Origin: Schizochytrium sp. TIO01
Lineage: Eukaryota; Protista; Bigyra: Labyrinthulomycetes
Assembly: GCA_004764695.1 (NCBI GenBank)
Contig: SMSO01000034.1
Coordinates: 186,001 to 250,000, forward strand
Length of the DNA stretch: 64,000 nucleotides
Reading direction: 5' to 3'
Both the position numbers and the translations under genes were made by a program. The notes below the pieces were generated by a model, which saw only the letters and a program-made list of their open reading frames with translations, was not told the DNA's origin and searched no databases. Shown in pieces: positions 18,684-51,912 of this stretch (the stretch's first letter is position 1; each line of letters opens with the position of its first letter).

Positions 18684-20918
18684 TTTTGCTTGGTGAGTTT
18701 GTAAGTGTCTAAAGACTTGACTGACAGCGGCTTGTGTTGCCTTTGATTGCGGTGTTTTGGTTTTGGTTTTGGAGTTGCGGGTTTGCTCCAAAGGCATCGC
18801 CAGGGCAAGACTTCCTACTCCTAGCATCGCCTAGCAACTTCTATTCCCGCTGGTAAACTTGTATTGAAAAGTAAAAGTGCAACTTCTCCCAGAGGTACCT
18901 TCTAAGCAGAGCATGATAAAAAGACAGCGCAAACAGTATGTTTATAAATAAAAATAACTCGTGCTCGCTACCCGAACCGGTGTCCATGATTGGCTGAGGA
19001 CGCACGCACGCGGCTCAAGTTTTCATAGTTTTCATACAGCGTCAGGGGCTTCGGGCATCGCGGACGGGGCCTGCTCAGAAACGTCCCAGCCCTCGCGTGC
19101 ATCCATTTTGATCTTGAACGAGGGTGCGCTGCATCGACGACGATGATAATTTTGGGGTCTCCTTCTTTTGAGAGTCTTGAAAGAAATGGCTCGCACTGTG
19201 GGAGCGAACTAGGCATTTCGCGGCTGCGGGGAACTTCTGCTTTCGCGCTGTTTTGTTTCTAGGGACGCTTCTCTACTCCGGCTTCTAACTTTTCCCCGCA
19301 GCGCCCTTCATACTACTGAGAGCCATAGCGAGTCCCTGTGTCTTTTTATTTTATTATTTTGTTATTCTATTATTTTAATTTAATTAATTAATTTAAAAAT
19401 AAAACTCATGAGTGCGCTAAGGTTGAGAATGGGACGGATAGATGGGACGAACTTGAGCTGGATATTACGAGCAGATCTAGTGGAACAGACGCACCGGCAT
19501 GCCAAGGCTTTTAGCAGAGCGGATCCTTCGCTGCGCAGCGCAGCGCTTGGATGGTTTAGACAAAGTTCTGAGGCGGAATTATTGCTGAGAAGAGACTTGG
19601 CGTATTGACCAAACAGCACTGCTGGTTACATGCCCAGGATGACGTATTCGAACCACCGAGATCTCAAGTAGGCTCCCTCAATGCATGAAATGCACCGGCT
19701 CAGCTATTGCCAACTATGGTGATGGACTGGGTAAGTTTTAAAATCAAGAGGACACCTCCGCATTTGTTGCAGTTTTAGATTCAATGCGACTTGAGAGTCT
19801 TTATTTGACAAAGGGCCATAACACCGACCAAAAGACTCCGAAGAGTCTATATGAAATTTGCCGTACTTACCATTCAACGCTGCCAAGAAGAGAGTACCCG
19901 GGTATAGGTGAAAGCTGTTGTATGAAATTTAGAAAGCATGGGATAACGATGATAAAGTTTTATTTTTGAAAGTCAAGGTTGCATTGAGTCTAGTCAATTA
20001 CATTTGGTATCAATCAAATATGTGAATTCTGCGTGTGATATTTTTTTACAGGAAACTTCGATGCAGCATTACTAGTATTGGTAAAGATTGTCTCTTCAAG
20101 GATTACCTATCATTGTGGTTGCTCCGTAATTAATGCTCATACTGCATGTATGGAATTTCAAAATAAAATAGAAAAAGGGTCAATCTATTTACTTGGCAAA
20201 GGAGGAGTCTTTAGACATACCTATAAAACGTATATCAGCACCAATGATTCGTCGGATCAAAAGGAGTCCTAGTTTAATGAAATCACGAGACAGCTTTCGA
20301 ATCAAAGAATGTATTTAAATGCTCTGTAGGCTTATCTAAACGCGGTTTTGTTTGCTTGCTTGCAAAGCCATAGCCTAATGCTATGCCCATTTTCTTTGTT
20401 CAGTAGGGACTTTGTACATGCTGCAAAGCTGGGCTAAAACCATGATTGTTGAAACGTTTCTCCAGAATTCCTGGTTTCAGGACTGTTTGGTCTTGAGCTT
20501 TACCTATATGTATATATATATATATACATTAAGGTGGCAGTTTGCCAGAGATAAGGTGGTGGCAAAATCCTTCGTCGTAGCTTTCATATTAAGTCAGTGT
20601 CTAGCACATAGATTGTGCCATGCATCATTTGCCACTGATTCGTTAATGGGTTAATCCGTGTGCTGTTGATCACCTTACTAACACCAAGTCTAAATGCTGT
20701 CTGTGCAAGTTACAATCTCTCGATTATCGTCTTTGATTACTGTCGCCCCCATCGAGATTTATGTAGCCGCCTCTTTCGCTAACACTGCCAGAAACACTGT
20801 GTCACCTGCAACTTGAAAAGCAAAGGATTCGTTGTAAGAATAGAGAAAAAAGTATTCCAAATAAGTTGATCTTTAATACAATGGTCAATTAGGGTGGCAA
20901 ATCGTCACGCCTCTGGGT

Positions 20919-21257
20919 CTAGTTCTGCTTGTACTCGAGCTTGGCGTCGGACGGGGTGATGCCAAGAATCTCGCGGTTGTTAGCTCCAAAGAACGTCTTC
21001 CACGGGCCCTTGGACGGCTTCATGTCCATGTGGGCGGTCTTCCAGCTGCCTACGGAGAGCGCAAAGACGATGCAGCCAACGAGAGGCCAGACCTCGGGGG
21101 CCTTGAAGAACATCATCTTCTCGCGAACGGCAGTGGGAGTCTGGATGAGAAACTTGGAGTGGCCGCCATGGGACTGGCCAGCCTCAGGGAACTTGATCTG
21201 CTTTGCCTCAGTGGAGAGCATGCGGCGTGCAGCAGCGCGTGCGGTGGAGGCCATCAT
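20919..21257 (-). CDS. NDUFA4/B12D-like protein, array copy 5
   Basis: The protein is identical to copy 1. Confidence 0.7.
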   Translation of the reverse strand: MMASTARAAARRMLSTEAKQIKFPEAGQSHGGHSKFLIQTPTAVREKMMFFKAPEVWPLVGCIVFALSVGSWKTAHMDMKPSKGPWKTFFGANNREILGITPSDAKLEYKQN

Positions 21258-23429
21258 TTTTGCTTGGTGAGTTTGTACGTGTCTAAAGACTTGACTGACA
21301 GCGGCTTGTGTTGCCTTTGATTGCGGTGTTTTGGTTTTGGTTTTGCTTTTGGAGTTTCGGGTTTGCTTCAAAGGCATCGCGAGGTTAGGCCTTCTGCTCC
21401 TAGCATCGCTTAAGGGCTCCTATATCTTTCCCTGAGTTCCTGTGCAACTCTAAAAACGAAACTTCTACTATCTCCACATTAGTGCCTATATAGTCCTACC
21501 GCCAGTTTCCTTCTAATTCCAAAGGTCTTTTCCATCTAACTTTTTATTTTAATCTTCAAACTATAAAAAATAAAACATCGCAGGCCCTCTATATATATGA
21601 TATATATATATTTTTTTTAGAAAAAGTCATTTAAAAAACCACACAAATAAAAGCAATCATAAAATACTATATAGCGAGAAGACAGCGAATCTCAAGGCAG
21701 GTCAGCGAACGAAAGGCCTCGCGGTAAGGCGGAACAGCGCATTCTCTGCGGACACCCTCAGACGGACGGACGCGTGATCTGCGAGCACTTCGGTTGTGTG
21801 CGCGCAGATGCGCAGATAACCAGAGCTCTGGAGCGAGCGGCCTCGGACGGCTTGCGCGCCGTGTGTTTGTTTGCTGAGAACTTCAGAAACGTCCCAACGC
21901 CGGCTGCGGGCCCACAGCTTGGCGCCGCCGCGACTGGCTCTAGGTTCTCGGCACCCACACTGTGGGGTGGTGTATGTCCTCCCCCTTTGGCGGCGGTGGG
22001 AAGATATCTCGTGCTCTCGTTCCCGCGGACGCTTCCCTCTAAACATATGTATTTACGTATGTTTGTATGGTACAGAGAGAGCATTCACTCGCTGCTGTAG
22101 ATCGCAGCGAGTGCCGCGTTGAAGTTGGTTGCTCAGGATGTTTGCGCTTTCATGGAATCGAGGTCGCTTCGCGAGGGACGCGTGGTTGTTTGGGGTCAAG
22201 AGTTTGATTTGATTTGATCTGATCTGATTTTATTCGATTCGATTCGATTCGATTCGATTCGACCGTTTGTTTGTTCTGTTTGTGAAGGCTCGGTTGAGGT
22301 TTTAGGCTGTACGAACGAAGACGGGCGCAGTGGAATTCCAAGAGGTTGCATGAAGATTATGTCCGCGAGGCACCTACGGAGAAGTGCTCCAGCTTTGGAA
22401 TTTATATATAACTAACTCTGCCAGGGTCTTGTGAAACCCAGGTTTTAGGCTTAATGCTCCAAGCTGAGCGGGAGCCCAACATGTTTTATGTCCAATGAAT
22501 GATCTGAGTTTGAAGTGCTATGCAGGTGTCTTTACACAATCTAGGTTCAAGCTCTAAAGCCTGTTTGGCCACGTGGGGGTGTTATTGTAGATTTGGCATC
22601 TCTACAAATTTGTCCGGTGGAATTCCCCATGCATGCGTGTGACCAAATTTCTGCAAGCAGCCCAATCTAGGCACCAGCAACAGCGATATACTTTACAATA
22701 GAAAGAGTTTTGCGAATGTCTTAGAGACCACTTGAAGAAGAAGGAACTCAACAAAAAAGTCGAGCCATAGAGCCCAGACTCATGCAGACTTCGAACGCAC
22801 GTTCAATTTTGATATTCATCATCATTCACTCATATTTTAACATTTTGTGTATATCTTCAAGGGGGTGCAACGAAACGCCCTTGCATCCAAGGTTCTGTAA
22901 GTAATTACAATTAGTCAGATTATGTCCACCTACTATGAGTTTGATTTGTTTGATATCTTGCAAGCGAGGGTGTGGAATCAATAAAAAGGAGCAAGCTTTA
23001 ACATATAAATTTAACTGTACTAAAATCCACTTGCAAGAGGGACCAGAGTGGAAAGCATCTCAACTTTATTGATGTACTGTGCTTGCTGGAAACTCCTAAT
23101 GCTGTATATCACCATTCGGCTAGGCAAACTAAGCAGGTTGGTCCCTCGACATTGCTGTCAAAGAAAACTCGAACAGTGCAGACTATTCGTAAGTGCTTGT
23201 TCAAATGGTCTCGCGTCTGCTCAAGACGTTTGTTTGTCCTCCATATATCGGCATTGCACGACGCCCCGGAACAAGAAGACTTTCGCGTCGAAGCGTGGAT
23301 GGACCAAGCTCAAGAGATATCAACAGGTTCTGTAAAACATCGCAAACAAGTTTATCATTTATTAATACAGGTGAGTACGTTGTGGCGGCGTTGGAGCTAG
23401 GATGACGAGATAATGTTGCACGTGTTCAA

Positions 23430-23768
23430 TTAGTTCTTCTTGTACTCGAGCTTGGCGTCAGACGGGGTGATGCCGAGAATCTCGCGGTTGTTGGCACCAA
23501 AGAACGTCTTCCATGGGCCCTTGGACGGCTTCATGTCCATGTGGGCGGTCTTCCAGCTGCCTACGGAGAGAGCAAAGACGATGCAGCCAACGAGAGGCCA
23601 GACCTCGGGGGCCTTGAAGAACATCATCTTCTCGCGAACGGCAGTGGGGGTCTGGATGAGAAACTTGGAGTGGCCGCCATGGGACTGGCCAGCCTCAGGG
23701 AACTTGATCTGCTTTGCCTCAGTGGAGAGCATGCGGCGTGCAGCAGCGCGTGCGGTGGAGGCCATCAT
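23430..23768 (-). CDS. NDUFA4/B12D-like protein, array copy 6
   Basis: It differs from copy 1 only at the penultimate residue (YKKN vs YKQN). Confidence 0.7.
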   Translation of the reverse strand: MMASTARAAARRMLSTEAKQIKFPEAGQSHGGHSKFLIQTPTAVREKMMFFKAPEVWPLVGCIVFALSVGSWKTAHMDMKPSKGPWKTFFGANNREILGITPSDAKLEYKKN

Positions 23769-25090
23769 TTTTGCTTGGTGAGTTTGTACGTGTCTAAAGA
23801 CTTGACTGGCAGCGGCTTGTGTTGCCTTTGATTGAGGTGTTTTGGTTTTGGTTTTGGAGTTGCAGGTTTGCTTCAAAGGCATTCCCGTCTTCAAGACTCG
23901 ACCCTTAGCGCCGTGTACGAGGTCCTAATTCCTTGCCTAAACTTGTATGTAACTGCAAATGTGCACCTCCCTCGTCCTGGCCATTGCCACCGTCCTGGCT
24001 GGCGACTGCTTCGTAGGAAGGACCTGCTACAGCGTAACAAACCTACCAGGCCTCGACCCTTCGTGGTTGGCCAGGGACGTCTTACGGTCCTTCTCGCCAG
24101 CGACCGCCCGCCACCACGCAACCAACCAAGCAGTTAACCAGGCAAGCAGGCACTGAGACCACGGCGCGATGGCTCAAACCGCTTCGAAGATGTAAAGCGA
24201 AGGCACGAAGGCACTTCTCAGTTCTTCTCAAGTTCGAGCTTTTTAATTAGTAATCAATTAATTAAGAAATTAATTAATTAATCAATTAACAATGAAGCGA
24301 GAACAGAGACTCCCTCTCACCCTCCCCCCCTCACTCACACACGCTGTCCCTGCTGAGAAAAAGGCGAAGACACCAGCATCCCGTCCCCTCCGGCTCCACT
24401 CGCACGGCCCCGCAGTGGCGGCTTGTGGCAGCACATCGCCCCCTCACAAGGCCTGCGGCTGTGGGAGAACGGTGATGGCGTCTCTGCACGGCAGGCATTT
24501 TACCTCTCTTGTGAGAGCGATCTGCGGACGCTTCGCAGTGAGCTTTGCTTAAGTCATCGATCCCTCTTTAAGTTCGTCGAGTTCTTGAGCACAGATCCGA
24601 CATTCCTGCGAGTTGGAGAACTCAGTGTGGATTTCGGAAGGTCAATTGTGCTCGGGCGGTGGAGATGTCTTTGGTGACTATGCACAGATGCAGTACACTC
24701 GTGTGAGCTTGGCTGGCATGGCAGCCGCTTCTGGGCTGGCCAATAAACGTATGGGGAGGCAGTCTCTCCAAGGCTCAAAGCTGCAGCGCTTGTTCATGGC
24801 ATTGCTTGTTTGATTGCCATGTCAGGTGCATCGAGTTGCAATTAAAGAAATTGGAGGAGTACGAAAACAGAGCTGGACGACCCTGAGGCTAGTCTTCATC
24901 TTCATCTTCATCTTCATCGTGAATCTTTGGCCTAACCTTGCAGCATGTGGTCCAAAGCAGTCCCCATTGGAAGAAGCTAAGGTAATGTACTGATGAAGGT
25001 AGGATCGAAAGGCTTTAAAAAACTAGTGACCGAAGCCCGAGATGAAACGTTTCATATGTAGTCAGTTACCTTTCCAGCGAGTGCTCTAGC

Positions 25091-25355
25091 TTGAAGAAAA
25101 CCATTGAAGCCCACGATGCAAGATATATCTCTTGACAGTCTTAAATTGAAGAGAATCATTGAAGCCCACGATGCAAGATATATCTCTTGGCAGTCTTAAA
25201 TTGAAGAGAATCATTGAAGCCCACGATGCAAGATATATCTCTTGGCAGTCTTAAATTGAAGAGAATCATTGAAGCCCACGATGCAAGATATATCTCTTGG
25301 CAGTCTTAAATTGAAGAGAATCATTGAAGCCCACGATGCAAGATATATATCTTGA
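25091..25355. repeat. 55-bp minisatellite, ~4.8 copies
   Basis: The unit CATTGAAGCCCACGATGCAAGATATATCTCTTGGCAGTCTTAAATTGAAGAGAAT starts at 25102, 25157, 25212, 25267 and 25322. Confidence 0.95.
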
Positions 25356-25577
25356 TAATCTTCTTACGTTGGAGAAATATCGAACGAAGCATTTGCAAAT
25401 ATATAACCCCCATTCAAGAAATTAAGGGACACTGTACTACCAAGCCGCCAAACGTAGCAAACCCGTTTCTTAGCAAGAAGAAATACATAAAAGCCTGAAT
25501 GTTAGGATGGCACGATTCTAAATCCAATTATTTTTATACAAATGTGTGTGCGTTGTACGTACGTTGAGTGGGGGTAT

Positions 25578-25928
25578 TTACTCCTTCTTTTTGTACTCGA
25601 GTTTGGAGTCAGATGGAGTAATTCCAAGGATAGCTCGGTTGTTAGCCCCAAAGAATGTCGCCCACGGGCCTTTGGATGGCTTCATGTCCATGTGGGCGGA
25701 TTTCCAAGTGCCTACAGAAAGAGCAAAGGCGAGGCAGGCAACGAGGGGCCATACTTCAGGGGCCTTGAAGAACATCATCTTCTCGCGAATCCCAGTAGGC
25801 GTCTGCGTGAGGAATTTGGAGTGGCCGCCATGAGATTGACCGGCCTCGGGGAACTTGATTTGCTTGGGTTCGGTGGAGAGCATACGGCGGGCACCTTTGC
25901 CAGCAAAACGCATTGCGGAGGACATCAT
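25578..25928 (-). CDS. NDUFA4/B12D-like protein, divergent array copy 7 (116 aa)
   Basis: MMSSAMRFAGKGARRMLSTEPKQIKFPEAGQSHGGH...PEVWPLVACLAFALSVG is clearly paralogous, with many synonymous changes. Confidence 0.7.
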   Translation of the reverse strand: MMSSAMRFAGKGARRMLSTEPKQIKFPEAGQSHGGHSKFLTQTPTGIREKMMFFKAPEVWPLVACLAFALSVGTWKSAHMDMKPSKGPWATFFGANNRAILGITPSDSKLEYKKKE

Positions 25929-27922
25929 TTTCTCTTGATGATGCAACGAGTACTTCGAAACCTTTGAAAGATTAATGGAGTGTGTTGCACTGTCGCGGTT
26001 GTCGTCGATCCGAATTGCTCGAAATTTGAGTTTGAGTTTGGGTTTTGCTTTTGCTCTTACTTTGGATTTTGGATTTCTCATATATTTGTTTCAAAATATT
26101 ATGCTGTACAAGAAAGCACTTTAAATGTATGAGAGTCATTTTAAATTGCACGTAGTTATCCATCCTAAGAAGGCTTTGTATGTTTAATTAGATTTCCCTT
26201 ATTGTAAAGTCTAATCAGTCCAGCTCTCTTTTTTTCATGACTTCTGGTAAATATTAATTAGTTTGCCGCAAGAAGAATGATCAGCTCTTATGGTTCGTTA
26301 TGGAAAGAATACCCATGGGACGTTTTGCCATGTACGCTCCCGAAGTCGGCGCATTTGCACAATAGCGAGCGACCAAATTTGCCTTTGGATAATATGATTC
26401 GTGACAACGTCACCTCATGGAAGTAGGGTTAATTGGGTTTGCGCGAAGGGTTAACGGGCACGATATAGAGCATTCTATGGCCCTATTAGCAGATTCTAGT
26501 GACCTTGTATAGAAATGTACCAGAACAGTTCAACCTACCCACAGTATAGGTTGGAGTTACTTAATACAACTATTCCAAGGAGATTTCTTGCATCTCAATG
26601 TGGAGGGGACATAGCCTTTGCTGTCCTCTGCGTACTTCCCTCAGTCATTACTTTTATCCCCCACAGACCATGTCTTTCTGTAGCTATCATTACTATTAGG
26701 CCCTACTAATTTTTGAAATTAAAAAGATTTGTTTTTAAAATTAAATTATAACAGATTAAAGTAGAAACTAACGCATTGCCGATATTATGTGAAACAAGCA
26801 GCAATAGGCGGTATTATTGTCATAGCTCTGACCATGTTGACAAAATCGTAGAAGCTGATCATGTTTGCTTCGGACGGAAGGGTGACTACTAAAAGAACAA
26901 ACTCTCCTTGGCGCTTCTCAGTTTGCAGTTAGGCCACGCGTATTTGCGATAGTAACTCTTACACCATGCGACAAAAGTTTGTTTTAAGAATCGTAGGAGG
27001 GACGGACGCACGCATCCACATACCAAGTGTGACGTTTGGTGAATACATCTCCATCGCAGGAGTGAAGAAAGAAAGAAAGTTCACGGCTTTAATTGTCCAA
27101 CCTTGGACTTCGGCATTGACGTGTGCTCTGACACGTCATGTTGTGTTGTGTTACAAATTGTCAACTGACGACACCACGCCAAGTTCCCGTATGCACAGCT
27201 GGACCCAAAATGCAAAGTGCCAAGTCATTGAACACCCACCATTGGTGACAATCTCGCAGGACGAAAGCTTAGCCAAGGAATCCTCCTGGTCCAGTCCGCA
27301 AGCCTCGCTATCTGCTATGTACATGAAGGGGTCCTCCATATTCATGAACTCTTGATTGATGGCCAGAGCAATCCAGGCGCGCTTGATTGCTAGACTTACT
27401 GAGGGTTCCGAAGAAGGAAACTAAACTCTAGATTTGCCCGTGCTCGAACATCCTTTGTCCATGCTCCTTCGATGAGCAATACATCTAATTAAGAAACAAA
27501 TAAATGAAACAACGCTCTGCATTTATAATATCTCTACTGCAAAGCTTTGAGCCTTGAGCCGTATGATTTTATACAATATCAAACGCCATGGGGCCAGCTC
27601 GATAGCTCTGATCTCGGATATCTACAGACTAATGACGCTGCTGCTCGCCGCAGCCTCAGAAGCTATGAATCTTCATCAATCATACACCAGAAAACTCGGC
27701 AAACATGAATTTCGCAATTCCACAGCGGCACCTGCTTTTGAGAATTTTGTTGACTGCGCTAGACCAGGACGATCCAAGTGGAGCTTTGGACTCAAGTCAA
27801 TGATCATCTTCAATAGATATAAAAAAGAGAATTAAAAAACGGTTCATCAATACAAAGTAGGTCTACGGAGGGGGGGGGTTCTTCATGCAAAGCGAGCGAT
27901 GTGCCACTTGCTGTTAACACAT

Positions 27923-28276
27923 TTACTCCTTCGAGTCCTTGTACTCAAGCTTGGAGTCAGACGGCTTGATGCCAAGAATCTCACGGTTGTTGGCGTTAAA
28001 GAAGGTCTTCCACGGGCCGGCAGACGGCTTCATGTCCATGTGAGCGGACTTCCAGGTGCCTACGGAGAGAGCGAAGACGATGCAGGCGACGAGCGGCCAG
28101 ACCTCGGGAGCCTTCATAAACATCATCTTCTCGCGAATTCCGGTGGGCGTCTGGACGAGAAACTTGGAGTGGCCGCCGTGAGACTGGCCAGCCTCAGGGA
28201 ACTTGACCTGCTTGGACTCGGTGGAGAGCATGCGGCGGGCACCCTTGCCGGCAAAGCGCATCGCAGAGGACATCAT
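27923..28276 (-). CDS. NDUFA4/B12D-like protein, divergent array copy 8 (117 aa)
   Basis: It has the same MMSSAMRFAGKG N-terminus as copy 7, GC-rich codons and PEVWPLVACIVFALSVG. Confidence 0.7.
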   Translation of the reverse strand: MMSSAMRFAGKGARRMLSTESKQVKFPEAGQSHGGHSKFLVQTPTGIREKMMFMKAPEVWPLVACIVFALSVGTWKSAHMDMKPSAGPWKTFFNANNREILGIKPSDSKLEYKDSKE

Positions 28277-29322
28277 CGTTCTGAGAGGAAGGCTTATAAC
28301 AATCGTCTATCTCAAGACAACCTGGCTGACTGACTGAATAAGGGCTGAGCTCTTGAACTGCTTCGCAATTTGGATTTGCTTTTGCTTTTGCTTTTGCTTT
28401 TGGATTTGCTTTTGCTTTTGCTTTCGCTTTCAAGTGAGCGAGTTCTTCGGCGATTTTAGCGGAACTGCGCCCCTCAGACCCCGTGCTTAAATTTGTATCA
28501 ATCTCTGGGCGCAAAATGCAAAATCTTGAAGAAATCCGGGCCAGCGCATATATTTCAACGGGAAATTAAATCCCTGGCAGAACGAATGCCTTCAAAGTGG
28601 AAGCTCACCGGTTCAGGCTGCGCTCCAGCGCCCTTCGGGAGGATTTCTGAAAGAACGCGATCAACGGAGCAGGCGGAACCGGACGGCGCCCGGTCTCCCT
28701 CTCGCGACGCCCTGAAGGCACGGAGCTCGAGCCCCTCAAATGCAGTCATCCATTTCGAAACGACGTGAGCAGACAGCAGCAAAACGGCTGACGGACAAAA
28801 ACGAAGTGCCGCGCGTGGCTGCTCGCACCCGCAGCGGTCCCCCAGGCCAATGTACGGCACTTCTTGGCGTTTCACTGTGGGACGCGCTTCCTCACAAGCC
28901 AGCCCTGCCCACCGAACCTTTCCAAAGCCGCAGCTTTCCCCGCTGTTTCTGCGGACGCTTCCACTGCCCACAGTGCTTCCCTCGCGCCGCCCCCCCCCCC
29001 CCGGAGTTTTCCCGACCCTCGCGTTGCTAGCTGAGCGATCTCCTATTGCGCGCCTCGAAACCTAAGGCGTCCCAACGGATCCTGCTTTGGACGGCCCTGG
29101 ACTTCGAAGGAATGACCGGCCGACTCGCTCACTGTCTGTTTGCCGCCAGACCAGCACATCTTGCGCGTTCGGAAAGATAAAGATAGACAGACGGACAGAC
29201 GGACAGGCCTCCGACGGTCTGTCTGGTGGCCTCTCTCGAGCGCCGGGTTTTCGTGTCCTCCACGAGTCGTCATGAATCTTGGGCCAACTTGAAGCATTCA
29301 AGCACGAATGTACGTATATAAT

Positions 29323-29357: not shown

Positions 29358-30342
29358 CAGAAAGATAGATAGATAGAAGATATCTGTGGATCCGTCCATT
29401 ACGAATAAGAAGAAAGAAAGAAAGGAAGAAAGTGCGTGCCGAGGGACGGATCCAGGCGCCGCACTGCAGGCACTGCAGGCTCTCGGCGGCCCCACAGCGC
29501 CCCGCAGCGCCCCGCAGAAGGGCGAAGATCCGCCGAACAGCGCGAGATCCGCCCTTTGGCAGCGGGAATCGTACAGCACAGCGTCCTTTACAGATGAATG
29601 AATGAATTAGATTGAATGAATGAATGAATTCGATTGAGTGAATGAATTAGATTGAATGAATGAATGAATGAATGAATGATCGATGCGAAATCAGCAGAGC
29701 TGGAAGAGGCCTTGGCCAAACCTGAGAGGGTTGGTGCATACATATCGATGGATAGAAACAAATGCAGATCAGTGAGTGAATCAGCGAAGTTGAGTCGGGG
29801 CTTTCCGCCCAAACCTGAGAAGACTTGATAAATGAAAAGGTGAATAAGTAAGCCTTCAAATAGAATTGGAACACACATACGCAGGCGAATGATAGACAGT
29901 GCATTCGTGAAGAAGTTGGAGATCGTAGACACGAACAACAACAACGACAACAAGAAGAAGATAAGAATAGTAATGATAGTAACAAGCACCAGCACAAGAA
30001 TTCAGAGCTGAGGCAGTTTGCGACGAGCAGCGCCAGAACATCCGCCGCCAGGGACGCTGAGCCTGGCGGCCTTCGCACACGCGACGGCAACAAAGCCGGC
30101 GATGGCTGGTGCAGACATCGAGGACGGCGACGACATCGACATCGACGACGACGACGACGACGAATCTGCGACAATTCAGGGGTGCTGACAGTTGTTCGTG
30201 CGGTCGGTGCTCGAGCCCTCTGAAGATGTGCAATCGTCAGAGTAAATCAGATTGAATCAGAGTAAATCAGATTGAATCAGAGTAAATCAGAGTAAATCAG
30301 AGTGAATCAGAGTAAATCAGAGTGAATCAGATTGAATCAGAT
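29324..30342. repeat. Microsatellite cluster: (ATAG)n 29324-29376, (GAAT)n 29594-29680, 10-bp (ATCAGAGTAA/ATCAGATTGA)n 30236-30342
   Basis: Visible directly. Confidence 0.9.
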
Positions 30343-33314
30343 TAAGTCGGATTGAGAGCAGCAAAGGTTGGCCGGGCAATGGACAAGCTCGTTCGGTCCA
30401 CTTCCAGGGCCTTGTTGGAGAAGAAGGGAGTGAAGTGCTGCGCTCGAAGAATTAATTATTCCAAGACATGAGGAATCGAAGACATGAGGAATCGAAGAAA
30501 ATGAAGAATCGAAGAAAACGAAGGATCGAAGGAAATGAAGGATCGAAGGCACCAAATCCCGCGTCCCGGACGAGAAGTGGGACGTTCGCAGGAAAGGCCT
30601 GGACGAGCTATGGCGACCGTCCAAGCTGACCTGAGGGAGGCACTGTGGGGAAACGCGGCGGTGACGCGGGAACCCGCACACGGGGCTGGCGAGGGCTCGA
30701 GTTTACAGGGAAGAATTTGGTTTGCGACGAAGAAGGGGGAATGCGAAGAGGCCAATCAATGTACGCGCGCGAAGGCGATTGTTTGAAGGAGGCGCGCCGA
30801 GAAAGATGCAAAATTGCTGATTGAACGCCACGCGGGGCCAGCGAAAGCGTGCGTCAGAAGGGCGCTGGAGTGGAGATTTGGGCGGGGCTTTTGATGATTT
30901 GGGGGAGGGGGCACATGTGGTGTCCAGGGCTTACGCAGGAAGTGAAGAAGCAGAATGATTGAAGCATCGATATTTGCTGAGCGTGTGGGGAGGATAATCA
31001 AGGCCTATGCAGGCGGTTTTAGGCTCAAGATTTGCGCAGAATGACGAGAGTATGGAATGACCGCGTGTTTGTTTGTTTACTTTACTTCACTTTACTTTAC
31101 TTTACTTCACGTGCTGCTGGGTTCCTTTCGTAATTCTGAACACTAACCGGCGCGAAGAATGATTCCCCAGGACATTTGAGACGGTCGAAATGGCTCGGGC
31201 TGTTATTTTCGCCGATAAAAAGCACGCGCCAAATTCTCCGAGGCGACTGTAATGCTCGCTCTGATTCTGATGCTCATCTTTCAGTACCTCTCTAGAGCAA
31301 ACCGGAAATGAGGCTGCACGGCAGTCGCACTTGCAACAGAGCTGCTGCAAGGAGTTCGAGGCTTGTTGTAATCAGCAGGACAATTTACACGAGGATGATG
31401 AGGTGAAGAAGACAAAATTTGGCATCGAGAGGTTCTAGGTTCCTGTGTGGCGTTCAAGATGTGTGGGCCTTGCGTGCTTGTGGAGAGCCCTTGCGATGTG
31501 CTAGGACCAATGAATCTCTTGCTTATTTTTCGTGGACTGTCGAGAAAATAATCCTGGTTGCTTCTGTTCAGGATCTCGAGGTTCGAGGAGTAGACTGTTT
31601 TCTGAGACCTTGGTCGAGTGGCCGCGGTTTGTTTGAACAAGCTATGTCCGCACCGCTATTCAATTCTTGTGAAATAGATTCCGTTCAAGTCATACCGTAC
31701 ATTTCTCAAAGGCTGAAAGCCTAGAGGGTGTGAACGTGGAGGGTATTAAAACTGAGACGCAGAGTAGGAGCGAAGCGCAATTGCTTTGATTTCACCGCTC
31801 GGATCATACCCCACGTATGGTCTTCTGATGTTGAGGAATAAAAATTCGGATTCGCAAAACTGTTGTTTTTTAGTCTGCGTCCTCTGCCCTATAAAAAGTC
31901 TTAATGACTAAACAGACTCTCACTTTTTCGGAAACCCAGTATCGCAAGGGTATTCTTCTCTTGTGAAAATGAATGGCTGGGCTCAGGAGACGTTACGTTC
32001 TAAGCGAATGGTCAACTTTCGAACCCCCTATTTTCATACGGTTGGAGCTAGCGCTAAAACATTAGCCAGAACACACATAGACATGTGGAGCCCAAATTTT
32101 AATTTTGCACAACTTTTAGGATATACCATTGTGCTCATCACATGAAATCATAAAGAAGCAACTTAGGCTTATCTCAGCGGTCAGACTGCAAGTCTACAGA
32201 GGGAGACAGAAAGAAAGAGATTTCACGCAAATAATCCGCTCTAAGCTTCAGAAATAAGGAAGCTGGGTCCACCCAAACATCGGGTGCTTTATGGAGAGCC
32301 TTGCGAATTTTGTATTTGTTATTCACCTCTACAAAATTTCCCCCGCTTCGCTGCAGAATCTACAATCGTTGATAAGATTATTTTTCTGAGGCGATAGAAC
32401 AATTTTACATCACTGCAACGCTCCAGCCGTGTCGAACGGATCAGGTGCTTCGTGATCATTGAATCAGTTTTGGTCCTTGCAAAGAGGTTTTCTAGGGGAA
32501 TTTTATGAACGCATATGGAGCTAATTGCTGAAAGTAGTAATGGAAGATTCTCTTCCTCACTAGCGATGTCTCTGCTGCTGCTCTTCATAGTGAATAAAGA
32601 TTGCTACGCCATAGATGAAGTAGACTTGAAAGGTTTTGGGCAGTTATCTCCTTAAAAGAGAAAAGAAACTACTCTTAAGTTTTGTTGTTGAAAGAGACAG
32701 GGTGGCGAGGCAGTTCGAAAGTTAAAGAAATATGGTTTTACCTATATGCAAGGAGTTAGTCTGCGCTACACAGAAGTGGCTCGAACCTTGCAAACGTTCG
32801 CCTATCACCGGCAAGGCCTATGAAGACCTACTGAAAAAGTTACAGTTGAACAGCTTCGAGGATTCTTGACATAAGTTTGACCGTGCGAACTAGCCGTCAT
32901 GAGGATTGCTCAGATTCTAAGGATGAATAAATGTGAAAAGATAATTTAACTACCAACAGAAACTTGAAAGGTTTTGTTTGAAAAGCGCGGGAAACTGTAG
33001 CTTTATTTTCTTTTTCTTGTTTTGGTGTGATCCGAAAGCATAAGATGTCTTCTTGTCCATACCTTCGCCTTTTAGTTCGAAGTAACTCAAGATTAATTTT
33101 TCTCAACAAATGTGAAAGAGCAACGAGGAAGAAGGAAAGTGAGGAAATATTAACATCACAGTGCAAATCTATTGATGGTTTAGTTAAAAAAAAGTTCGTA
33201 GAGATATAAGTTCAACAACAACAAACGCAGGTAGCAAACAGGAGAAAAGACTTGACTTTGCTCTTATTTGGTCACACTGCTTGTATGAAGAGATTCAAAA
33301 GGAGAAAAAGAATT

Positions 33315-36300
33315 TTACAAGGTGGTGTCCAACGCGGCGTCAAGATCGACGTCCGCGCCAGGCTGCGTGGAGAGCTCCACAGCAAGGTGGATAATCTCAC
33401 GCGGATTGCCAACACAATTTTTGATAAGCTTGTGTTGTGCCACCTCCTGTAAGGTCGCCTCTCGCGGATTGCTTGATGGATTTACAACAATCTTCCGTTT
33501 AAGATGACGAACAAACAAGAGAGCAGCATCACCAGCATGCATAGGCTGCAGCTGATAATTTACGACGTTAACATTGAGTGTATGGCCCAAATGAAGAGGT
33601 TGTGCAGAGGTCACAAGGATGCGCACGTTTGATGTGCGGTCCAAAATGCCATGCAAAACAGCAATAGTTAGTGGGGATTCACGAAAGTCATCAAGAACAA
33701 TCAGGCATTTCGCGGCGCGCTGAGCAAGCGCGCGAGCCAAGACATTGGACTTGGCCACAGCACGCCTGCGCAAATCGCTGAGCGCAAGTCTTTCAAGGCG
33801 GCGCGCCTTATCCGCTTCGCCGTTTGAGAGATCATCATGGATATCATCTTCCTCATCACTGACAGACTCCTCGTCACTGCTAAATGAAGATGATTCCGAA
33901 TTCAGAAGTGATTCCATCGTCATAATTGCCTCCTTAGAAACAGCCCTGCGATCAGCAAAGTGAGGTGCAAACTCAAGAGCATCGTCCTCGATATCGTAGG
34001 TGCTCGCTGAACCATACTGAGTGGATAGCATGGCACTAACGCTGCGCTCTGTAGATGTATTCTGATCAGCAGGTGAGGCTTCAGAAGAGAGAAACGGGTA
34101 CAAAGCATCCCAAAGATTGTCAACGAGACTTGCCAGCTCCATAATTGCTTCTTCCGGCGAGTCCTTTGTGTGGCGATGATGGTGGTGATGATGATAGTGT
34201 GCTGACTTGACATAAAAGATACCATCACGCATGACTGTAGAGCACCGACGTTGATGTAGGTGATGAGCTACGGCAAGAGAAACTTGTGTTTTGCCCATCC
34301 CAGATGCCTCGGAGCAAACTGCAACGAGACGGCGGCGGTCTTGCATCAGGTAGCGCAAAACAGTCCACATGGAGGCATGGCGACCAAGGAAATCTTCACA
34401 CAAGGGAGGGAGTGGTTGCATTGTCTCACTTTGCGGCCAAGTACGAGTTTGGCGGCGGTCTTGCGCAGTTGGGCGCCAAATGACCTCGCGGTGGGAATCG
34501 TTATCCGGAAGCAAAACAAAGGCATCCATCTCATCATCAGCAAATGACGGCGAGCTTTGCACAGCCTCACGGGCTGACTCAAAAGCGTCGCGCACTGTAC
34601 GCCCACAAGCTAAAGCCAAGTAAAACGCACGTGTGAACACTGCAGCTACCTGATCGCGTACGCGCTTGCGATATGCGATCACATGAGCAACCCCAGCTAA
34701 AACGAACTCACGAGCTGCCGCATCCGAATTACAGGCATTGAGCACCACCAAGCGCAGCGTCTTGAATGATCGCTGCGTAATGGTAGAACGCAAAAGGCCG
34801 CGAAGCATATCCATACTCACACTGTGAAGCTGGCCAGCTGCATCTTCAAATGCAATAAAGTTTTTGGTACAGTGGCCGCTGAAATGTAAGCAGCGAACAT
34901 TGCCAAGAGTCATAAGTGTGTGAAAGGACTCTACGGTAGCACACGATACTGACACAGGAACTTCGCTTCGTAGCGACTGTCCTGAGGCAAGAGCAGCATG
35001 TCGCAAACTCCGACGAAGCATGTTATACTCACGCTGAATATCAAGCCCCTGAATTGGACGAAACTGGGAATCAGGGTTTCCAGAGACACCTTCTTTGCCC
35101 ATCATGATCAACGGCGAAGCGAACAGCAAATGGACCACACCTTCCTGGGGGTCGGTTGGTGCAGCCTTGGCAACCGGAATAAGAGAAGGCAAAAGGCTGT
35201 CAGAGTTCGGCGGGCTCTCAACAAAGGGAATATCAGAAGAGCAACGAATGTGAGGTCCTGGTTGTTCTAATGGTTGAAAGGTGGATGAAGAAGACGAGGA
35301 TGCTGATGTAGAAGACGCAATGCTAATCCCACTGTCGCTGTTTGCTGATGTCTGACGAATGTCCACAGCATGGGGCCGGGGTGGGTCAGCAGAAATGCTT
35401 CGCTTCGCCGGCCCACTGACTTTGGCGACAATAATTGGCTTGTCTGCCTCGTCAAGCTCTTCCTCGTCCCCGATACTGACAGAGACCTCACGACGTAACT
35501 TCATTAAATCATTTGGGACACGATAGTTGAGAGATGCCCACACAAAGATGGCCACAAAAACCGAGCCTTGTAAGAAGGAGAGAGCCATGCGGCTGAGCAT
35601 GTAGTCCTCGCAATTCGGTCCACCATACCCAAACTCGCAAGCACACTCCCCATCGATGCACTCACCACGGTGTGAACAGATAGCACCGTCTTGGTTAGAC
35701 TGACACCTGTAGGTATCTCGGTTGGTAATTTCTGCGCCAAAAATTTTCACATCATGAAGCTTAAGCTGCCCAAAGCTCAGGCGCTGGATGCGAATGTAGC
35801 TGCACGCTGTGTGTACGTGCATGCTAAAGTTTCCAGAGTCCTGCAGCACGACTTTTTTCCAACTAAAGGGCAACGGGCTCACGTCCGCGACAAGGTCAAC
35901 GTTGGTTACGTTCGAGCACCATACAAGCAATTTGCTTTGCTCAGAAACCTCATCAACGTTGACCGCAAAAGAGATGTGATCAACATAGTACAAACCATCA
36001 AGATCCATAATGATGTATGGAGAGTCCTCACTAGCTGTAGCGATTGTCTGGCGCCCTGCAGTTAGCCTACAAAAAGTGCCTTCTGAGGAAGACGAGGAAG
36101 ACTGCAGGCAAGTTTTGTTGGTAGCGATATTGGGAAGAAACTCAACAGGGTGTTCCTTGCCATTATTTTCCGTCTCAAACTGCGGACTAATGCGTGCAAA
36201 ATTAGACCCTAATGGAGTAGGAGACAAAGAAACACCGTTTGCGCGCTTGTGCTTGTCGGCAACAAGAAGTTGTTCTTTCGTGGGGCGGTATTGCTCACCA

Positions 36301-38135
36301 GCCATGGGAGACGCTGCTGGAGTCCCAACAAAACCGTTAAAGTTCCAGTCTTCAACATCATCCATGAAGCTCTTGGGCTTGCGTGCTTTGTATTGTGGCG
36401 GATGCTGATGACCAGGACCCCGGCGGTAAGGTGGTGAAGCCACGGGTGTTTTACCAAGGCTGGGAGAGAGGGAAGATGTGTGCACATGTGTAGATGTCCT
36501 GAATTCAGGCGACGCAGCTGGCGTCTCTGCCATCTCGAATTCTGGTGATGCAGAAGGTGTCGAGTACAAATACGAGCGAGTGGCCGCTACAGCGGCGTTT
36601 ACAGCTGCGGGGGCTGCTCTTGCAGCAGCAATTTTAGCTGCCACGAAATGTGGCGACGCAGCAGGTGTTTCTGCAATGCCTCTTTTGTAGGGTGCTGACG
36701 CAGGAGCAGCATAACCGCTGTACCTCTCTGCAGCGGCCGCTCTGGCTGCAGCAAAGTTAGGTGAGGCTGCTGGTGTCTCAGCGATATTTTCATTCCTCGA
36801 AATTGATGGCGTTGACTGAACATGATGCTGGCGGACAGCCTGTGCCGCGTACGCTTCTCGCCTGCGCTGCGCTGCCTCGACAGCTCTGACATTTTCAAGA
36901 TGAGGCGACGCGGCAGGTGTATCTGTTACGCCAAATTCTGGCGAGGCTGCTGGAGCAGAAAATGATGCAGCTCTTCGCCTTGCTGCAGCATACACATCGT
37001 CAAGATGAGGCGATGCAGCCGGTGTATCCGCAATCCCAAAATCAGGGGAGGCAGACGGGGCTGTATCGTATCCGTACCGCCTTGCTGCCGCAGCAGCAGC
37101 AGCAGCGGCTGCAGCGGCTGCTCGCACATCTTTCATGTGTGGTGATGCAGCTGGAGTATCTGCAACTCCAAACTCTGGTGAAGCGGAAGGTGCTGAGTAT
37201 GAAGACGTGTGTCGATGTTTTGCTGCTGCAGCTACTGCTGCAGCTGCCTCTGCTGCACGTACATCGTGAAGATGAGGCGAGGCTGCTGGTGTGTCTGCAA
37301 CCCCAAAATTAGGTGATGCTGCAGGTGCGGAATAAGAGTCTTCTCGATGGCCCCTCGCCGCTGAGGCAGACGCTGCAGCCGCTGCCGCTGCTGCCGCTGC
37401 TGCAGCCGCCCTTACGTCCTCCATATGCGGAGATGCTGCTGGTGTGTCAGCAATACCGAACTCTGGTGATGCTGCTGGAGCAGAAAATGCTTCCTGGTGA
37501 TGATGGCGCCTTGCTGCGAAAGCTGCTGCTGCAGCCGCTGCTGCCCTTACATCTTCCATGTGTGGTGAAGCTGCTGGTGTATCTGCAATTCCAAATTCTG
37601 GTGATGCAGCAGGTGCGGAAAAGGTCTCGTGGTGTTGACGATACCTTGCTTCAGCGGCGGCGGCTGCTGCTGCCCTAATATCCTCCATATGTGGTGATGC
37701 TGCAGGTGTGTCTGCAACCCCAAAGTCTGGTGATGCAGCAGGTGCGGAAAAGGTCTCGTGGTGTTGACGATACCTTGCTTCAGCGGCGGCGGCTGCTGCC
37801 CTAATATCCGCCATATGTGGTGATGCTGCAGGTGTGTCTGCAACGCCAAAGTCTGGTGATGCTGCTGGCATAGAATAGGAGCTTCGTTGCATAGGTATCC
37901 TAAAATCTGGTGATGCAGCTGGTGTGTCTGCGATGCCGTTAGCCTCGAAACGTTCGCGTTTATGTCTCTCTCGCATTATGAGAACCCTTCTCCTCATTTC
38001 AGGTGAGGCCGACGGAATGTCCACGCCTTCGATTTCTGGTGATGCTGCTGGTGTGTTTGACTCTGCTCCGACCAACGAACATGCGCCAATAAAGAGCAGG
38101 AGCCATGCTGCCAGCAGTTTCCCAACACGAGCCAT
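33315..38135 (-). CDS. Type I membrane protein: signal peptide, PAASP repeats, EGF-like domain, TM, CHAT (caspase-like) protease, STAND/NB-ARC-like P-loop NTPase
   Basis: Signal peptide MARVGKLLAAWLLLFIGACSLVGA. About 25 P(A/S)ASP motifs. EGF CSHRGECIDGECACEFGYGGPNC. TM MALSFLQGSVFVAIFVWASL. CHAT motifs LLFASPL, LHFSGH, LVVLNAC and FTRAFYLALACGRTVRDAF. NTPase motifs DFLGR, SGMGKT and LIVLDD, with C-terminal GNPREI. Confidence 0.85.
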   Translation of the reverse strand: MARVGKLLAAWLLLFIGACSLVGAESNTPAASPEIEGVDIPSASPEMRRRVLIMRERHKRERFEANGIADTPAASPDFRIPMQRSSYSMPAASPDFGVADTPAASPHMADIRAAAAAAEARYRQHHETFSAPAASPDFGVADTPAASPHMEDIRAAAAAAAEARYRQHHETFSAPAASPEFGIADTPAASPHMEDVRAAAAAAAAFAARRHHHQEAFSAPAASPEFGIADTPAASPHMEDVRAAAAAAAAAAAAASASAARGHREDSYSAPAASPNFGVADTPAASPHLHDVRAAEAAAAVAAAAKHRHTSSYSAPSASPEFGVADTPAASPHMKDVRAAAAAAAAAAAAARRYGYDTAPSASPDFGIADTPAASPHLDDVYAAARRRAASFSAPAASPEFGVTDTPAASPHLENVRAVEAAQRRREAYAAQAVRQHHVQSTPSISRNENIAETPAASPNFAAARAAAAERYSGYAAPASAPYKRGIAETPAASPHFVAAKIAAARAAPAAVNAAVAATRSYLYSTPSASPEFEMAETPAASPEFRTSTHVHTSSLSPSLGKTPVASPPYRRGPGHQHPPQYKARKPKSFMDDVEDWNFNGFVGTPAASPMAGEQYRPTKEQLLVADKHKRANGVSLSPTPLGSNFARISPQFETENNGKEHPVEFLPNIATNKTCLQSSSSSSEGTFCRLTAGRQTIATASEDSPYIIMDLDGLYYVDHISFAVNVDEVSEQSKLLVWCSNVTNVDLVADVSPLPFSWKKVVLQDSGNFSMHVHTACSYIRIQRLSFGQLKLHDVKIFGAEITNRDTYRCQSNQDGAICSHRGECIDGECACEFGYGGPNCEDYMLSRMALSFLQGSVFVAIFVWASLNYRVPNDLMKLRREVSVSIGDEEELDEADKPIIVAKVSGPAKRSISADPPRPHAVDIRQTSANSDSGISIASSTSASSSSSSTFQPLEQPGPHIRCSSDIPFVESPPNSDSLLPSLIPVAKAAPTDPQEGVVHLLFASPLIMMGKEGVSGNPDSQFRPIQGLDIQREYNMLRRSLRHAALASGQSLRSEVPVSVSCATVESFHTLMTLGNVRCLHFSGHCTKNFIAFEDAAGQLHSVSMDMLRGLLRSTITQRSFKTLRLVVLNACNSDAAAREFVLAGVAHVIAYRKRVRDQVAAVFTRAFYLALACGRTVRDAFESAREAVQSSPSFADDEMDAFVLLPDNDSHREVIWRPTAQDRRQTRTWPQSETMQPLPPLCEDFLGRHASMWTVLRYLMQDRRRLVAVCSEASGMGKTQVSLAVAHHLHQRRCSTVMRDGIFYVKSAHYHHHHHHRHTKDSPEEAIMELASLVDNLWDALYPFLSSEASPADQNTSTERSVSAMLSTQYGSASTYDIEDDALEFAPHFADRRAVSKEAIMTMESLLNSESSSFSSDEESVSDEEDDIHDDLSNGEADKARRLERLALSDLRRRAVAKSNVLARALAQRAAKCLIVLDDFRESPLTIAVLHGILDRTSNVRILVTSAQPLHLGHTLNVNVVNYQLQPMHAGDAALLFVRHLKRKIVVNPSSNPREATLQEVAQHKLIKNCVGNPREIIHLAVELSTQPGADVDLDAALDTTL

Positions 38136-39905
38136 TGTGAAAAAAAGAAGATTTACCTGTGTATATAATCAATAAATGTGCGAAAGAAGGTATGTATATT
38201 ACGTATTTTTTCGCTTCCTCGTTTGTGAGTTTGTGAGAGTGTAGGCTGTTTAAATTTGCTGCTACACCCTGACAAATTCTGCTTATGTAATGGAAATCAA
38301 TTCCTTGCGTCGAGAGAGTGGAGGAGAAACCCCAAATATTAATTACAACACAGCCAATAGATCAGAGACCACTGCACGACGGCCTTCAACTAAATTAAGC
38401 TACTCCCAACTCCAACCAAGGTGATCAAGCCGAAGAGTATCACAGAAGAATGATGCGCGAGCTTTCGCACCTTTTATTCTTTGATAATAGAAAAACGAAA
38501 GGCCAAAGAACGAGATAGTAAAACACTACAACAAGATAGTGAAAACGAAACCCAAGATGAAAACGGTCTCCTGAACGGGGCGGGCTCAACCCGGCTCGTC
38601 TACAGTCTCCGTTCCCTTCTTCGCGTATAGCACTGCGCTTCCACCGCGACAGAAGTAGTAGAGGCCGACGGACTAGTCGAAAAACCTAGTTGAAATAGTA
38701 GTTGAGAATCGAATTGACCAGACGACCAGCAGAGCGTCCGCGGACGCGATGATGGGTCGCCTTGCAGCCGACCACCAGTCCTGCGACCTAGAGCTATGCT
38801 CCCGCCTGCGCTCAGGGCGTCTGGCGGGAGCTGATTCGTCCTCGGCCGCGGCTCCTCGCGGCGATGGGCGGTGTCTAGGGGCGGTCTCGCGCGGCCGCTC
38901 CTGACGTCCTCTATCAAAGTTGTTTACACTGACGATTTCGAAAAGAGTGAAGCGGCCTTCCTCTATGCCCCCCTCCGATGGGGCCCCTCAATGCCTCACA
39001 GGGTTATTGCGGGAGTCTATGCTCCTAATGTCCACTATATGGGCACTATGCGGCGAAGTTTGCTCCGCAACACCGGAAGGGGCCGCAATTGAGGTTGTCT
39101 CGGTGTGCAGTTGTCTTATTATACTTGTATCAAAAGGACAGGTGCAAGGCGAAGCGGCCGCGCCTCAGCTAAAACTTGTATCTGTGGTCGGCAGCAAAAT
39201 CCGGGTGAAAGACACGAGCGAAAGGGCCGAGAGGCGCCAGTGTGTATGAGAGGAGAACACCACTGAAGAACTAAACTAGAGGGACAGCCACTCACACGCC
39301 ACTGACACACTACCCTCTGCAGAAATGTTGTGATTATGTTCCCAATTTGGCTTGGGCGGCAGGACAGTGGATATGCTGAAGTTACGAAGTGCCAGACTTA
39401 TTCAAATTTACATTTTTAAATTTTCAAATTAGCTATTCAGACACACTAACACTGGAAACGTATTTAAGGACATCACTACGACCAATCATTTGCAGAGGAA
39501 AACATTCTAGAAAACTCCGATCGGAGCAGGAAAAAAAGAAAAACGAAGCTTTGGGAATCCTTCGAAAAAACCAGCCCCTCCAGTCAAGCGCACTGCGGGC
39601 AGTCCCTCCCCTCACAAATCTATCACCAAAGTACCACAAGTGCTCAGAGTCGCCTCACGAAGCTCAGACTCCCAAACCGCAGCTTTCCCACCGTCTTGGC
39701 TTTCTGCTCCAACTGTGGACCATAGTATCTCTATCACATCTCCACAGTTCCAAACCGGCCGTCCTCCGAGCCAACTCACCTTCTTCCTTTTCTTTTTCTC
39801 TACTCCATACTTCTATTCGTTGAATATAGGCACCCCTATATAAACAGAAATATAAATACCTCGTTTGATGTTGCAATATAATAGAAACGCGAGTATTCCC
39901 TGATT

Positions 39906-51818: not shown

Positions 51819-51912
51819 TTATTTTTTTAGCTGGTTGAAATTGTTTGCACCAATGTTATTTTGCGCTGGCAATATATAGTAAAAGCAATAAGATTACTTA
51901 TTGTTAGATAGA

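Follow-up and report, generated by a model that had tools for sequence, protein, structure and literature searches.

A 64,000-nucleotide stretch of the Schizochytrium sp. TIO01 genome (contig SMSO01000034.1, positions 186,001 to 250,000; hereafter the window) carries on its minus strand a stop-free frame that runs from an ATG at 38135 to a TAA at 33317-33315 and encodes 1606 residues. Along this chain lie a predicted signal peptide, a repeat region, a predicted lectin-fold domain, an epidermal growth factor (EGF)-like module, a predicted transmembrane (TM) helix, a CHAT caspase-like domain and a nucleotide-binding module. A preliminary description of this DNA had taken the gene for a surface receptor that fuses an EGF ectodomain to a cytoplasmic CHAT protease and a STAND-like NTPase, working as a death receptor, apoptosome and caspase in one chain. 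The one-chain architecture is borne out here, and the apoptosome and death parts are downgraded.

Eight of 23 listed public sequencing runs were examined, one from each of eight studies. The records identify none of them as RNA; we guess six to be RNA, and two (X19 and X23) are of unknown kind. In every one of the eight, with RNA status guessed, a single contig spans the lectin fold, EGF module, TM helix, CHAT and NTPase without a joint there. Seven of these bridging contigs start at 33156-33203, just beyond the stop codon, and the eighth continues into the neighbouring region; upstream contig pieces terminate at 38685-38913, and the leader from 38913 to 38136 contains no ATG. X19 and X23, the candidate DNA controls, break where the other runs break and thus provide no DNA control, so that this pattern, the one expected of a single unspliced transcript, is only a hint of such a transcript. 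The X19 record covers 33168 to 38913 except for one repeat unit. We rejected this 126-base skip (37684-37811) as an intron because its GT..AG borders lie on the plus strand, opposite to the gene, and it corresponds to one repeat unit; repeat collapse or strain variation accounts for it. Among the differences listed between runs, all three from residue 660 to the end are synonymous, and five of eight in the repeats alter a residue. The nearest named homologues come from Mucochytrium quahogii and from Hondaea fermentalgiana, whose protein is 69% identical in the cytoplasmic part. The gene is real and conserved.

The architecture was then searched for beyond the window. A search for representatives returned 772 proteins at E ≤ 1e-10, of which the best 150 were examined together with word-search hits. 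The order lectin fold, TM helix, CHAT, NTPase is found in 11 distinct proteins of 165 (the window's included and cluster-mates uncounted), referred to here as receptors, and 10 of these have a recognisable EGF module. A further locus (L002) encodes a twelfth receptor in a single frame, and the layout thus recurs in 11 other proteins. Only two taxon names appear among the receptor homologues, both thraustochytrids, and databases label both proteins merely as CHAT-domain or hypothetical proteins. Three more proteins, P0054, P0100 and P0156, place a TM helix before the CHAT-NTPase cassette and form one branch (support 100/99); their ectodomains are not matched by the lectin-fold profile, which gave no match in P0100 or P0156. 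The P0054 cluster contains entries from the dinoflagellates Symbiodinium and Effrenium.

Table 1 Features of the receptor gene, in window positions
Feature	Residues	Position	Strand	Basis and remarks
Whole open reading frame	1606 aa	33315..38135	(-)	No intron needed; bridged by single contigs
Predicted signal peptide	~1-24	38064..38135	(-)	Hydropathy peak 4-22, KD 2.11
Low-complexity repeat region	~26-612	36300..38060	(-)	Ala runs and 24 P[AS]ASP motifs; varies between sequencing runs
Predicted F-type-lectin/CBM32-like beta-sandwich	667-805	35721..36137	(-)	Structure model, Foldseek, Z 14.0; without fucose-binding motif
EGF-like module, six Cys	811-843	35607..35705	(-)	Pfam; Cys positions
Predicted single TM helix, basic residues on C-terminal side	851-869	35529..35585	(-)	Hydropathy; helix 184-209 of ectodomain model
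Ser/Pro-rich juxtamembrane linker, poorly conserved	872-995	35151..35522	(-)	Identity to homologues
CHAT caspase-like domain	997-1225	34461..35147	(-)	Pfam, model, structure search; His1088 at 34874-34872, Cys1135 at 34733-34731
NB-ARC-like nucleotide-binding domain, acidic insert 1316-1450	~1240-1530	33546..34418	(-)	Model, structure search, motif counts
Helical domain 1 with GxP; no winged helix or sensor repeats after	1531-1598	33342..33545	(-)	Structure search, end-point scoring

The preliminary description placed sensing outside the cell, in a repeat ectodomain, and this held in part: the predicted layout is indeed an outer sensor, a TM helix and an inner CHAT-STAND module, but the likely sensor is a different one. 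The repeats are present, with their P[AS]ASP motifs falling within residues 29-610, yet they are no family trait. In homologues the lectin fold is preceded by 27-197 residues, with 0-1 of these motifs (P0002 and P0003 look 5'-incomplete), and the long repeat region, far longer than in any homologue examined, is found only in the window's protein. On this ground the repeats were rejected as the sensor of the family.

What had been missed is the domain that follows them. In a structure model of the ectodomain built from an alignment of 14 sequences (predicted local distance difference test score, pLDDT, 80), residues 667-805 form a predicted beta-sandwich whose best matches are fucose-binding F-type lectin modules and CBM32 (Foldseek E 4e-6). 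It aligns with 2J22 at Z 14.0 (root mean square deviation, rmsd, 2.9 over 122 aligned residues) and with 3CQO at Z 13.9, while 4ZXE, IFT25 and 1K12 fall within 1 Z unit of the 2J22 match. A sequence search of the ectodomain against the PDB returned EGF matches only, the lectin fold having come from the model, and Pfam F5_F8_type_C matches P0023, P0024 and P0025 below its cut-off. Residues N673, S679, S680, D711, L712, W759, H773 and G800 of the predicted fold are invariant across homologues; the fold is 74% identical to that of Hondaea, and the differences listed in the examined runs include no single-nucleotide polymorphism (SNP) within it. The lectin-fold domain, rather than the repeats, is likely the sensing module. 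F-type lectins bind fucose through the motif HX26RXDX4R/K, as given in PMC5297725; the predicted fold agrees with these lectins, the motif is missing, and identity as a true F-type lectin was rejected.

The signal peptide, EGF module and TM segment of the preliminary description all hold up as predicted features. EGF families match residues 807-843 with six Cys, below the Pfam cut-offs, and match the Hondaea homologue at or above cut-off. The strongest hydrophobic 19-mers lie at 4-22 (Kyte-Doolittle hydropathy, KD, 2.11, signal-like) and 851-869 (KD 1.85), the next reaching 1.33. We predict the topology from hydropathy, charge bias and the homologues: 13 of 15 TM members have more Lys and Arg after the hydrophobic span than before it, the other two having equal counts, and signal-like N-termini rise above threshold in 6 of the 11 receptors (P0002 and P0003 again appearing incomplete). 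By hydropathy and charge counts, the protein thus combines the signal peptide, single TM segment and positive-inside bias of a type I single-pass protein. The juxtamembrane linker is 36% identical to that of Hondaea and 2-11% identical to those of the other nine homologues. Because these ~125 residues are unconserved, rigid coupling across the membrane is unlikely, and proximity becomes a plausible signal. An ESM Atlas search with residues 636-1606 gave leads all under 0.9.

Structure prediction and structure search recovered both cytoplasmic folds that had been proposed. The cytoplasmic model, built on 87 sequences, has a pLDDT of 87 and a predicted template modelling score (pTM) of 0.88, and this high pTM suggests that the modelled CHAT and nucleotide-binding domain (NBD) pack together. 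Pfam CHAT (PF12770) matches residues 1027-1213 at E 5.4e-17 (62.6 bits against a cut-off of 24), and the CHAT model superimposes on SAVED-CHAT (8TL0) at Z 24.1 (rmsd 2.5, 199 aligned; profile E 1.8e-11), with H1088 and C1135 aligned to its dyad motifs. The dyad is defined in PMC12052993. As previously described, LHFSGH (residues 1083-1088, 34889-34872) and LVVLNAC (1129-1135, 34751-34731) are in place and the dyad residues are kept, but the catalytic His is followed by Cys rather than Gly, so that the protein lacks the His-Gly of clan CD. His-Gly is the defining clan CD motif and forms part of the oxyanion hole, and SAVED-CHAT, which is active, has Gly after its His. Catalytic residues were counted over 143 aligned proteins, 11 receptors and 132 others; the rows are related, so the counts are descriptive and carry no test. 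All 11 receptors keep the catalytic His and Cys; of the 132 others, 131 keep the His and 130 the Cys. The Gly before the His is replaced in 5 of 11 receptors, and His-Gly persists in receptor P0025 and in the TM members P0054, P0100 and P0156. In comparisons with 10 homologues, CHAT proves to be the best-conserved domain in eight (84% identity with Hondaea, 34-66% with the rest), and conservation is also strong at non-catalytic CHAT positions. An uninformative attempt to model the cytoplasmic module of P0022, a homologue, as a homodimer without an alignment scored 0.00.

Behind CHAT, the window's protein carries the FLGR (1249), GMGKT (1279), LIVLDD (1478) and GNP (1576) motifs on which the NTPase assignment had been based. 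All are present, but the chain stops after helical domain 1 (HD1) and Walker A lacks its first Gly. The Pfam NB-ARC match falls below cut-off (E 0.006). The NTPase model aligns to Apaf-1 109-346 (Z 16.3) and CED-4 113-356 (Z 15.0), and also to plant resistosomes; the best match of the family's NTPase profile among solved proteins is AfsR (E 3.4e-17). With residue 346 taken as the end of HD1 in Apaf-1, the aligned part would be NBD plus HD1. No winged helix was found, as the structure alignment stops at HD1 and the chain ends 17 residues after it, and no sensor repeats follow HD1. PMC12856790 describes NB-ARC as NBD, HD1 and winged-helix domain, with the winged helix a part of the switch and of the resistosome contacts. 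All 11 receptors keep the Gly of the HD1 GxP and the first Walker B Asp, and 10 of them also keep the Pro of GxP. Other nucleotide motifs are degenerate in the group. Full Walker A (GxxxxGK[ST]) is found in 3/11 receptors versus 86/132 others, its Lys in 6/11 versus 98/132 (R, Q or V replacing it in 5/11 receptors) and the sensor-1 Arg in 1/11 versus 30/74; in the window's protein itself, GKT and the Walker B Asp-Asp are intact, and the first Walker A Gly and the sensor-1 Arg are missing.

All 14 scored TM members end within 45 residues of HD1. The absence of C-terminal sensor repeats, noted in the preliminary description, is confirmed, but it is not peculiar to the receptor form: of 154 proteins tested, 69 end within 60 residues after HD1, 60 extend further and 25 were unscored, and 55 of the 115 scored non-TM relatives are also short, some perhaps being fragments. 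The HD1-terminated cassette is thus a common module, and what sets the receptors apart is that it stands behind an ectodomain. NBD-HD1 is most likely a packed regulatory or scaffold domain and not an ADP/ATP switch. We read the sequence pattern as that of a probably retained protease with an altered active-site rim, beside a decaying nucleotide switch.

A tree of 54 chosen rows with two long-branch outgroups puts the window's protein within a seven-member clade (100/100). The 15 TM forms, together with P0129 and P0095, fall on one side of a weakly supported branch (92/57), and the approximately unbiased (AU) test on this same set gives p 0.045 against holding the 15 TM forms together, as a single origin would require. 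Soluble relatives, among the 79 proteins scanned, carry the cassette behind FHA, SPRY, SAM or LRR domains or ahead of TPR or SH2. The FHA-CHAT-NTPase forms are P0029, P0035, P0045, P0050, P0055, P0058 and P0098, and the SPRY-(SAM or LRR)-CHAT-NTPase forms P0031, P0063, P0064 and P0079; one FHA/SPRY-type protein is named, from Gefionella okellyi, and these forms point to a broad protist CHAT-STAND signalling family. SH2 follows CHAT-NTPase in five of P0062, P0077, P0088, P0094, P0106 and P0104, the last being a STAT linker match. These forms, four of which group at 93/97, suggest STAT-like proteins with a caspase-like protease. P0152, with a TM helix, then basic residues, CHAT, NTPase and a 200-residue tail, falls together with an EAD7-CHAT-NACHT protein in the tree (100/97) and may be a prokaryotic TM-CHAT-STAND protein. 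P0013, a 228-residue fragment of a close homologue (54-63% identity), is labelled as a Phycisphaerae bacterium from a metagenome bin, a label probably explained by eukaryotic contamination of the bin.

We propose, with the scales evenly balanced, that the protein is a type I receptor whose outer lectin-fold and EGF unit binds a ligand, clusters, and thereby switches on an inner CHAT protease that cuts a specific target. Beyond the architecture, we infer each step of this mechanism. An outside ligand, either a protein or some glycan that is not canonical fucose, would bind the lectin-fold and EGF unit; binding would cluster receptors, with proximity as the signal; the clustered CHAT domains might then turn active, by analogy with SAVED-CHAT filaments. 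CHAT would cut a cytosolic substrate or its own disordered juxtamembrane linker, the latter releasing the module and conceivably occurring in trans, as proposed for DdvA. The output need not be death. In favour of this proposal we count the frame and jointless contigs, the recurrent order, the Lys/Arg bias, the confident cytoplasmic model, the kept His and Cys, CHAT conservation, synonymous SNPs, the SAVED-CHAT precedent and the ectodomain matches.

Several observations weigh on the other side. Just 1 of 11 receptors has Gly next to the catalytic His on its C-terminal side (eight have Cys, two Ser), versus 125 of 132 others, and with His-Gly replaced, protease activity in the receptors may be altered or lost. 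The predicted lectin fold is shared, at Z 13.4 and tied with the lectin matches, by the non-lectin IFT25; the fucose motif HX26RXDX4R/K occurs in 0 of 12 family ectodomains and the DG signature in just 3 of 12. The TM peak, judged by hydropathy, is modest at KD 1.85, and the 13 window open reading frames scanned include no gasdermin-like or other effector family.

The strongest competing explanation, although an unlikely one, draws on these active-site changes: CHAT would be weak or dead and, with NBD-HD1, would provide a docking surface that relays the signal to partners. The loss of His-Gly in 10 of 11 receptors and of the preceding Gly in 5 of 11, the parallel decay of nucleotide motifs in the receptor group and the conservation of non-catalytic CHAT positions all fit such a pseudo-protease. 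It sits poorly, however, with retention of both catalytic residues in 11 of 11 receptors despite CHAT identities of 34-84% to the window's, and with the His-Gly of P0025, P0054, P0100 and P0156.

Marginally less probable again is the model of the preliminary description, in which a ligand drives an ATP-dependent, apoptosome-like NTPase ring that activates CHAT and brings on the cell's own death as an immune reaction. Although the NTPase matches Apaf-1, CED-4 and plant resistosomes, and the window's protein retains GKT and the Walker B Asp-Asp, the Apaf-1 alignment stops at 346 and the TM members end shortly after HD1, leaving no winged helix. Walker A and the sensor-1 Arg are, moreover, degraded in the receptors, at the frequencies given above. 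Fungal CHAT-domain NLRs do control gasdermins, according to PMC12881547, yet an ectodomain fold with no listed SNP and 74% identity to Hondaea is unlike an arms-race sensor. The likeness to death receptors fares no better, as no TNFR Cys-rich or death-domain Pfam match appeared at E up to 1.

We consider it improbable that the protein is a tethered protease and no receptor, with an ectodomain that serves as an anchor in the cell wall or a membrane domain and only positions a protease controlled from inside. The occurrence of CHAT-NBD-HD1 behind FHA, SPRY and LRR in soluble proteins means that the cassette may respond to cytosolic cues, the Pro/Ala/Ser/Thr-rich repeats may resemble wall glycoproteins, and the long unconserved linker rules out rigid transmembrane coupling. 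A flexible linker is nonetheless compatible with activation by clustering, and the lectin-fold-EGF-TM block, with its invariant lectin-fold residues, is kept in very divergent homologues. Lastly, an artefact in which two neighbouring genes or a mis-assembly are read as one protein is highly improbable and already largely refuted, for although the runs examined are RNA by guess and contain no DNA control, the frame has no stop or frameshift, the same order is found in 11 other proteins and the stretch from TM helix to NTPase is jointless in 8 of 8 runs.

Our preferred reading, a ligand-clustered receptor with a CHAT protease, extends to a wider proposal that we hold a shade more tentatively: stramenopile and alveolate protists would have an old, hitherto undescribed class of enzyme-linked surface 'receptor caspases', in which a lectin-fold sensor directly controls a cytoplasmic CHAT domain. 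This class would be one branch of a large toolkit with CHAT-NBD-HD1 behind TM, FHA, SPRY or LRR or ahead of TPR or STAT-like SH2. To our knowledge, known eukaryotic single-pass enzyme-linked receptors have kinase, phosphatase, cyclase, RNase or TIR output, and animals reach caspases only via adaptors. If true, a receptor bearing its own cytoplasmic caspase-fold protease would add a type of receptor output. It would also offer a concrete way into the question of how outside cues are sensed, and regulated proteolysis or death carried out, in protists that have neither caspases nor death receptors. Thraustochytrids are amenable to culture and transformation, so the claim is directly testable.

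Elsewhere in the window, a small gene encoding ~112-117 residues is present at 9500-28300 (-) in eight tandem but dispersed copies, six near-identical and two diverged. They match B12D/NDUFA4 weakly (E 0.001-0.003, below cut-off) and reflect either a real expansion or an assembly effect. Paralogous open reading frames at 54937-57150 and 61159-62769 (-) each encode a coiled coil followed by a middle domain that no Pfam family matches; a kinase domain closes the first, whereas the second stops short of it, a layout that may resemble that of Crinkler-type proteins. A 1000-residue M12-like metallopeptidase, predicted to be secreted and C-terminally anchored, is encoded at 51892-54912 (+) in an AT-richer part. 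The frame at 7081-8112 (-), perhaps of viral origin, combines STKS repeats with PBCV-specific basic adaptor domains (E 1.2e-9), the latter being typical of giant viruses. Next to the 3' end of the receptor gene, 30300-33000 is covered by contigs in the examined runs, and its sole ATG-started plus-strand open reading frame of more than 60 residues has 83; it possibly gives a non-coding or repeat-derived transcript.

Among known systems, SAVED-CHAT of Haliangium ochraceum (8TL0) is the closest solved CHAT and likewise has a sensor fused to CHAT, activation by oligomerisation and a specific substrate; bioRxiv 2023.06.23.546230 describes its activation by oligomerisation and its cutting of one partner protease. 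It differs in being soluble and bacterial, in sensing cA3 and in keeping His-Gly, and it has no NTPase, TM helix or ectodomain. DdvA of Myxococcus xanthus (8ROT/8RW5) is a single-pass membrane protein with CHAT (Z 14.1), for which signal-induced autoproteolysis in trans is proposed (PMC11506125). Its topology is opposite, however, with a periplasmic CHAT and TPRs, a cytoplasmic anti-sigma domain and no NTPase. Fungal and bacterial CHAT-NLRs (CHAT-STAND-TPR/WD40) also place CHAT directly ahead of a STAND NTPase (PMC12881547), and CHAT-NTPase-TPR proteins occur among the homologues of the window's protein. CHAT-NLRs are, by contrast, intracellular (as PMC12881547 describes for those of fungi) and tripartite, with sensor repeats at the C terminus, and in fungi they cluster with gasdermin genes, whereas our chain ends at HD1 and has an N-terminal, predicted extracellular sensor. 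Identity as a true NLR was rejected, given the lack of C-terminal repeats and the predicted signal peptide and TM helix.

The Apaf-1/CED-4 apoptosome, plant NB-ARC resistosomes and AfsR-type STAND ATPases share the NBD-HD1 fold (Z 14-16). The window's protein departs from them in having no winged helix, a degenerate Walker A and sensor 1, an in-chain protease and a predicted membrane anchor. F-type lectins, CBM47 and CBM32 (2J22, 3CQO, 1K12) share the predicted beta-sandwich (Z 13-14, rmsd ~3, 120-132 aligned) and differ in the fucose motif, which is missing from 12 of 12 family ectodomains. Plant S-domain receptor-like kinases (RLKs) and wall-associated kinases (WAKs) have a glycan-type sensor, EGF and TM helix before a cytosolic kinase, the part that is replaced in this analogy; DEK1 calpain and the bacterial BlaR1 couple a membrane sensor to a cytosolic protease, and are multi-pass with calpain or zinc proteases. 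We know of no CHAT-STAND cassette in RLKs, WAKs, DEK1, BlaR1 or bacterial CHASE2-caspase fusions. Death receptors of the TNFR family are marked by Cys-rich TNFR repeats and, in the cytoplasm, a death domain, whereas CHAT plus NBD-HD1 account for our cytoplasmic model. PMC10907252 describes C-type lectin folds in STAND and CHAT proteins of bacteria, some of which are membrane-bound, but not the present layout. A literature search, over sources available in part, found no description of the present architecture, which the supplements of large domain surveys could hold. The CHAT-STAND kind is thus known, and it is the sensing topology that is new and apparently undescribed.

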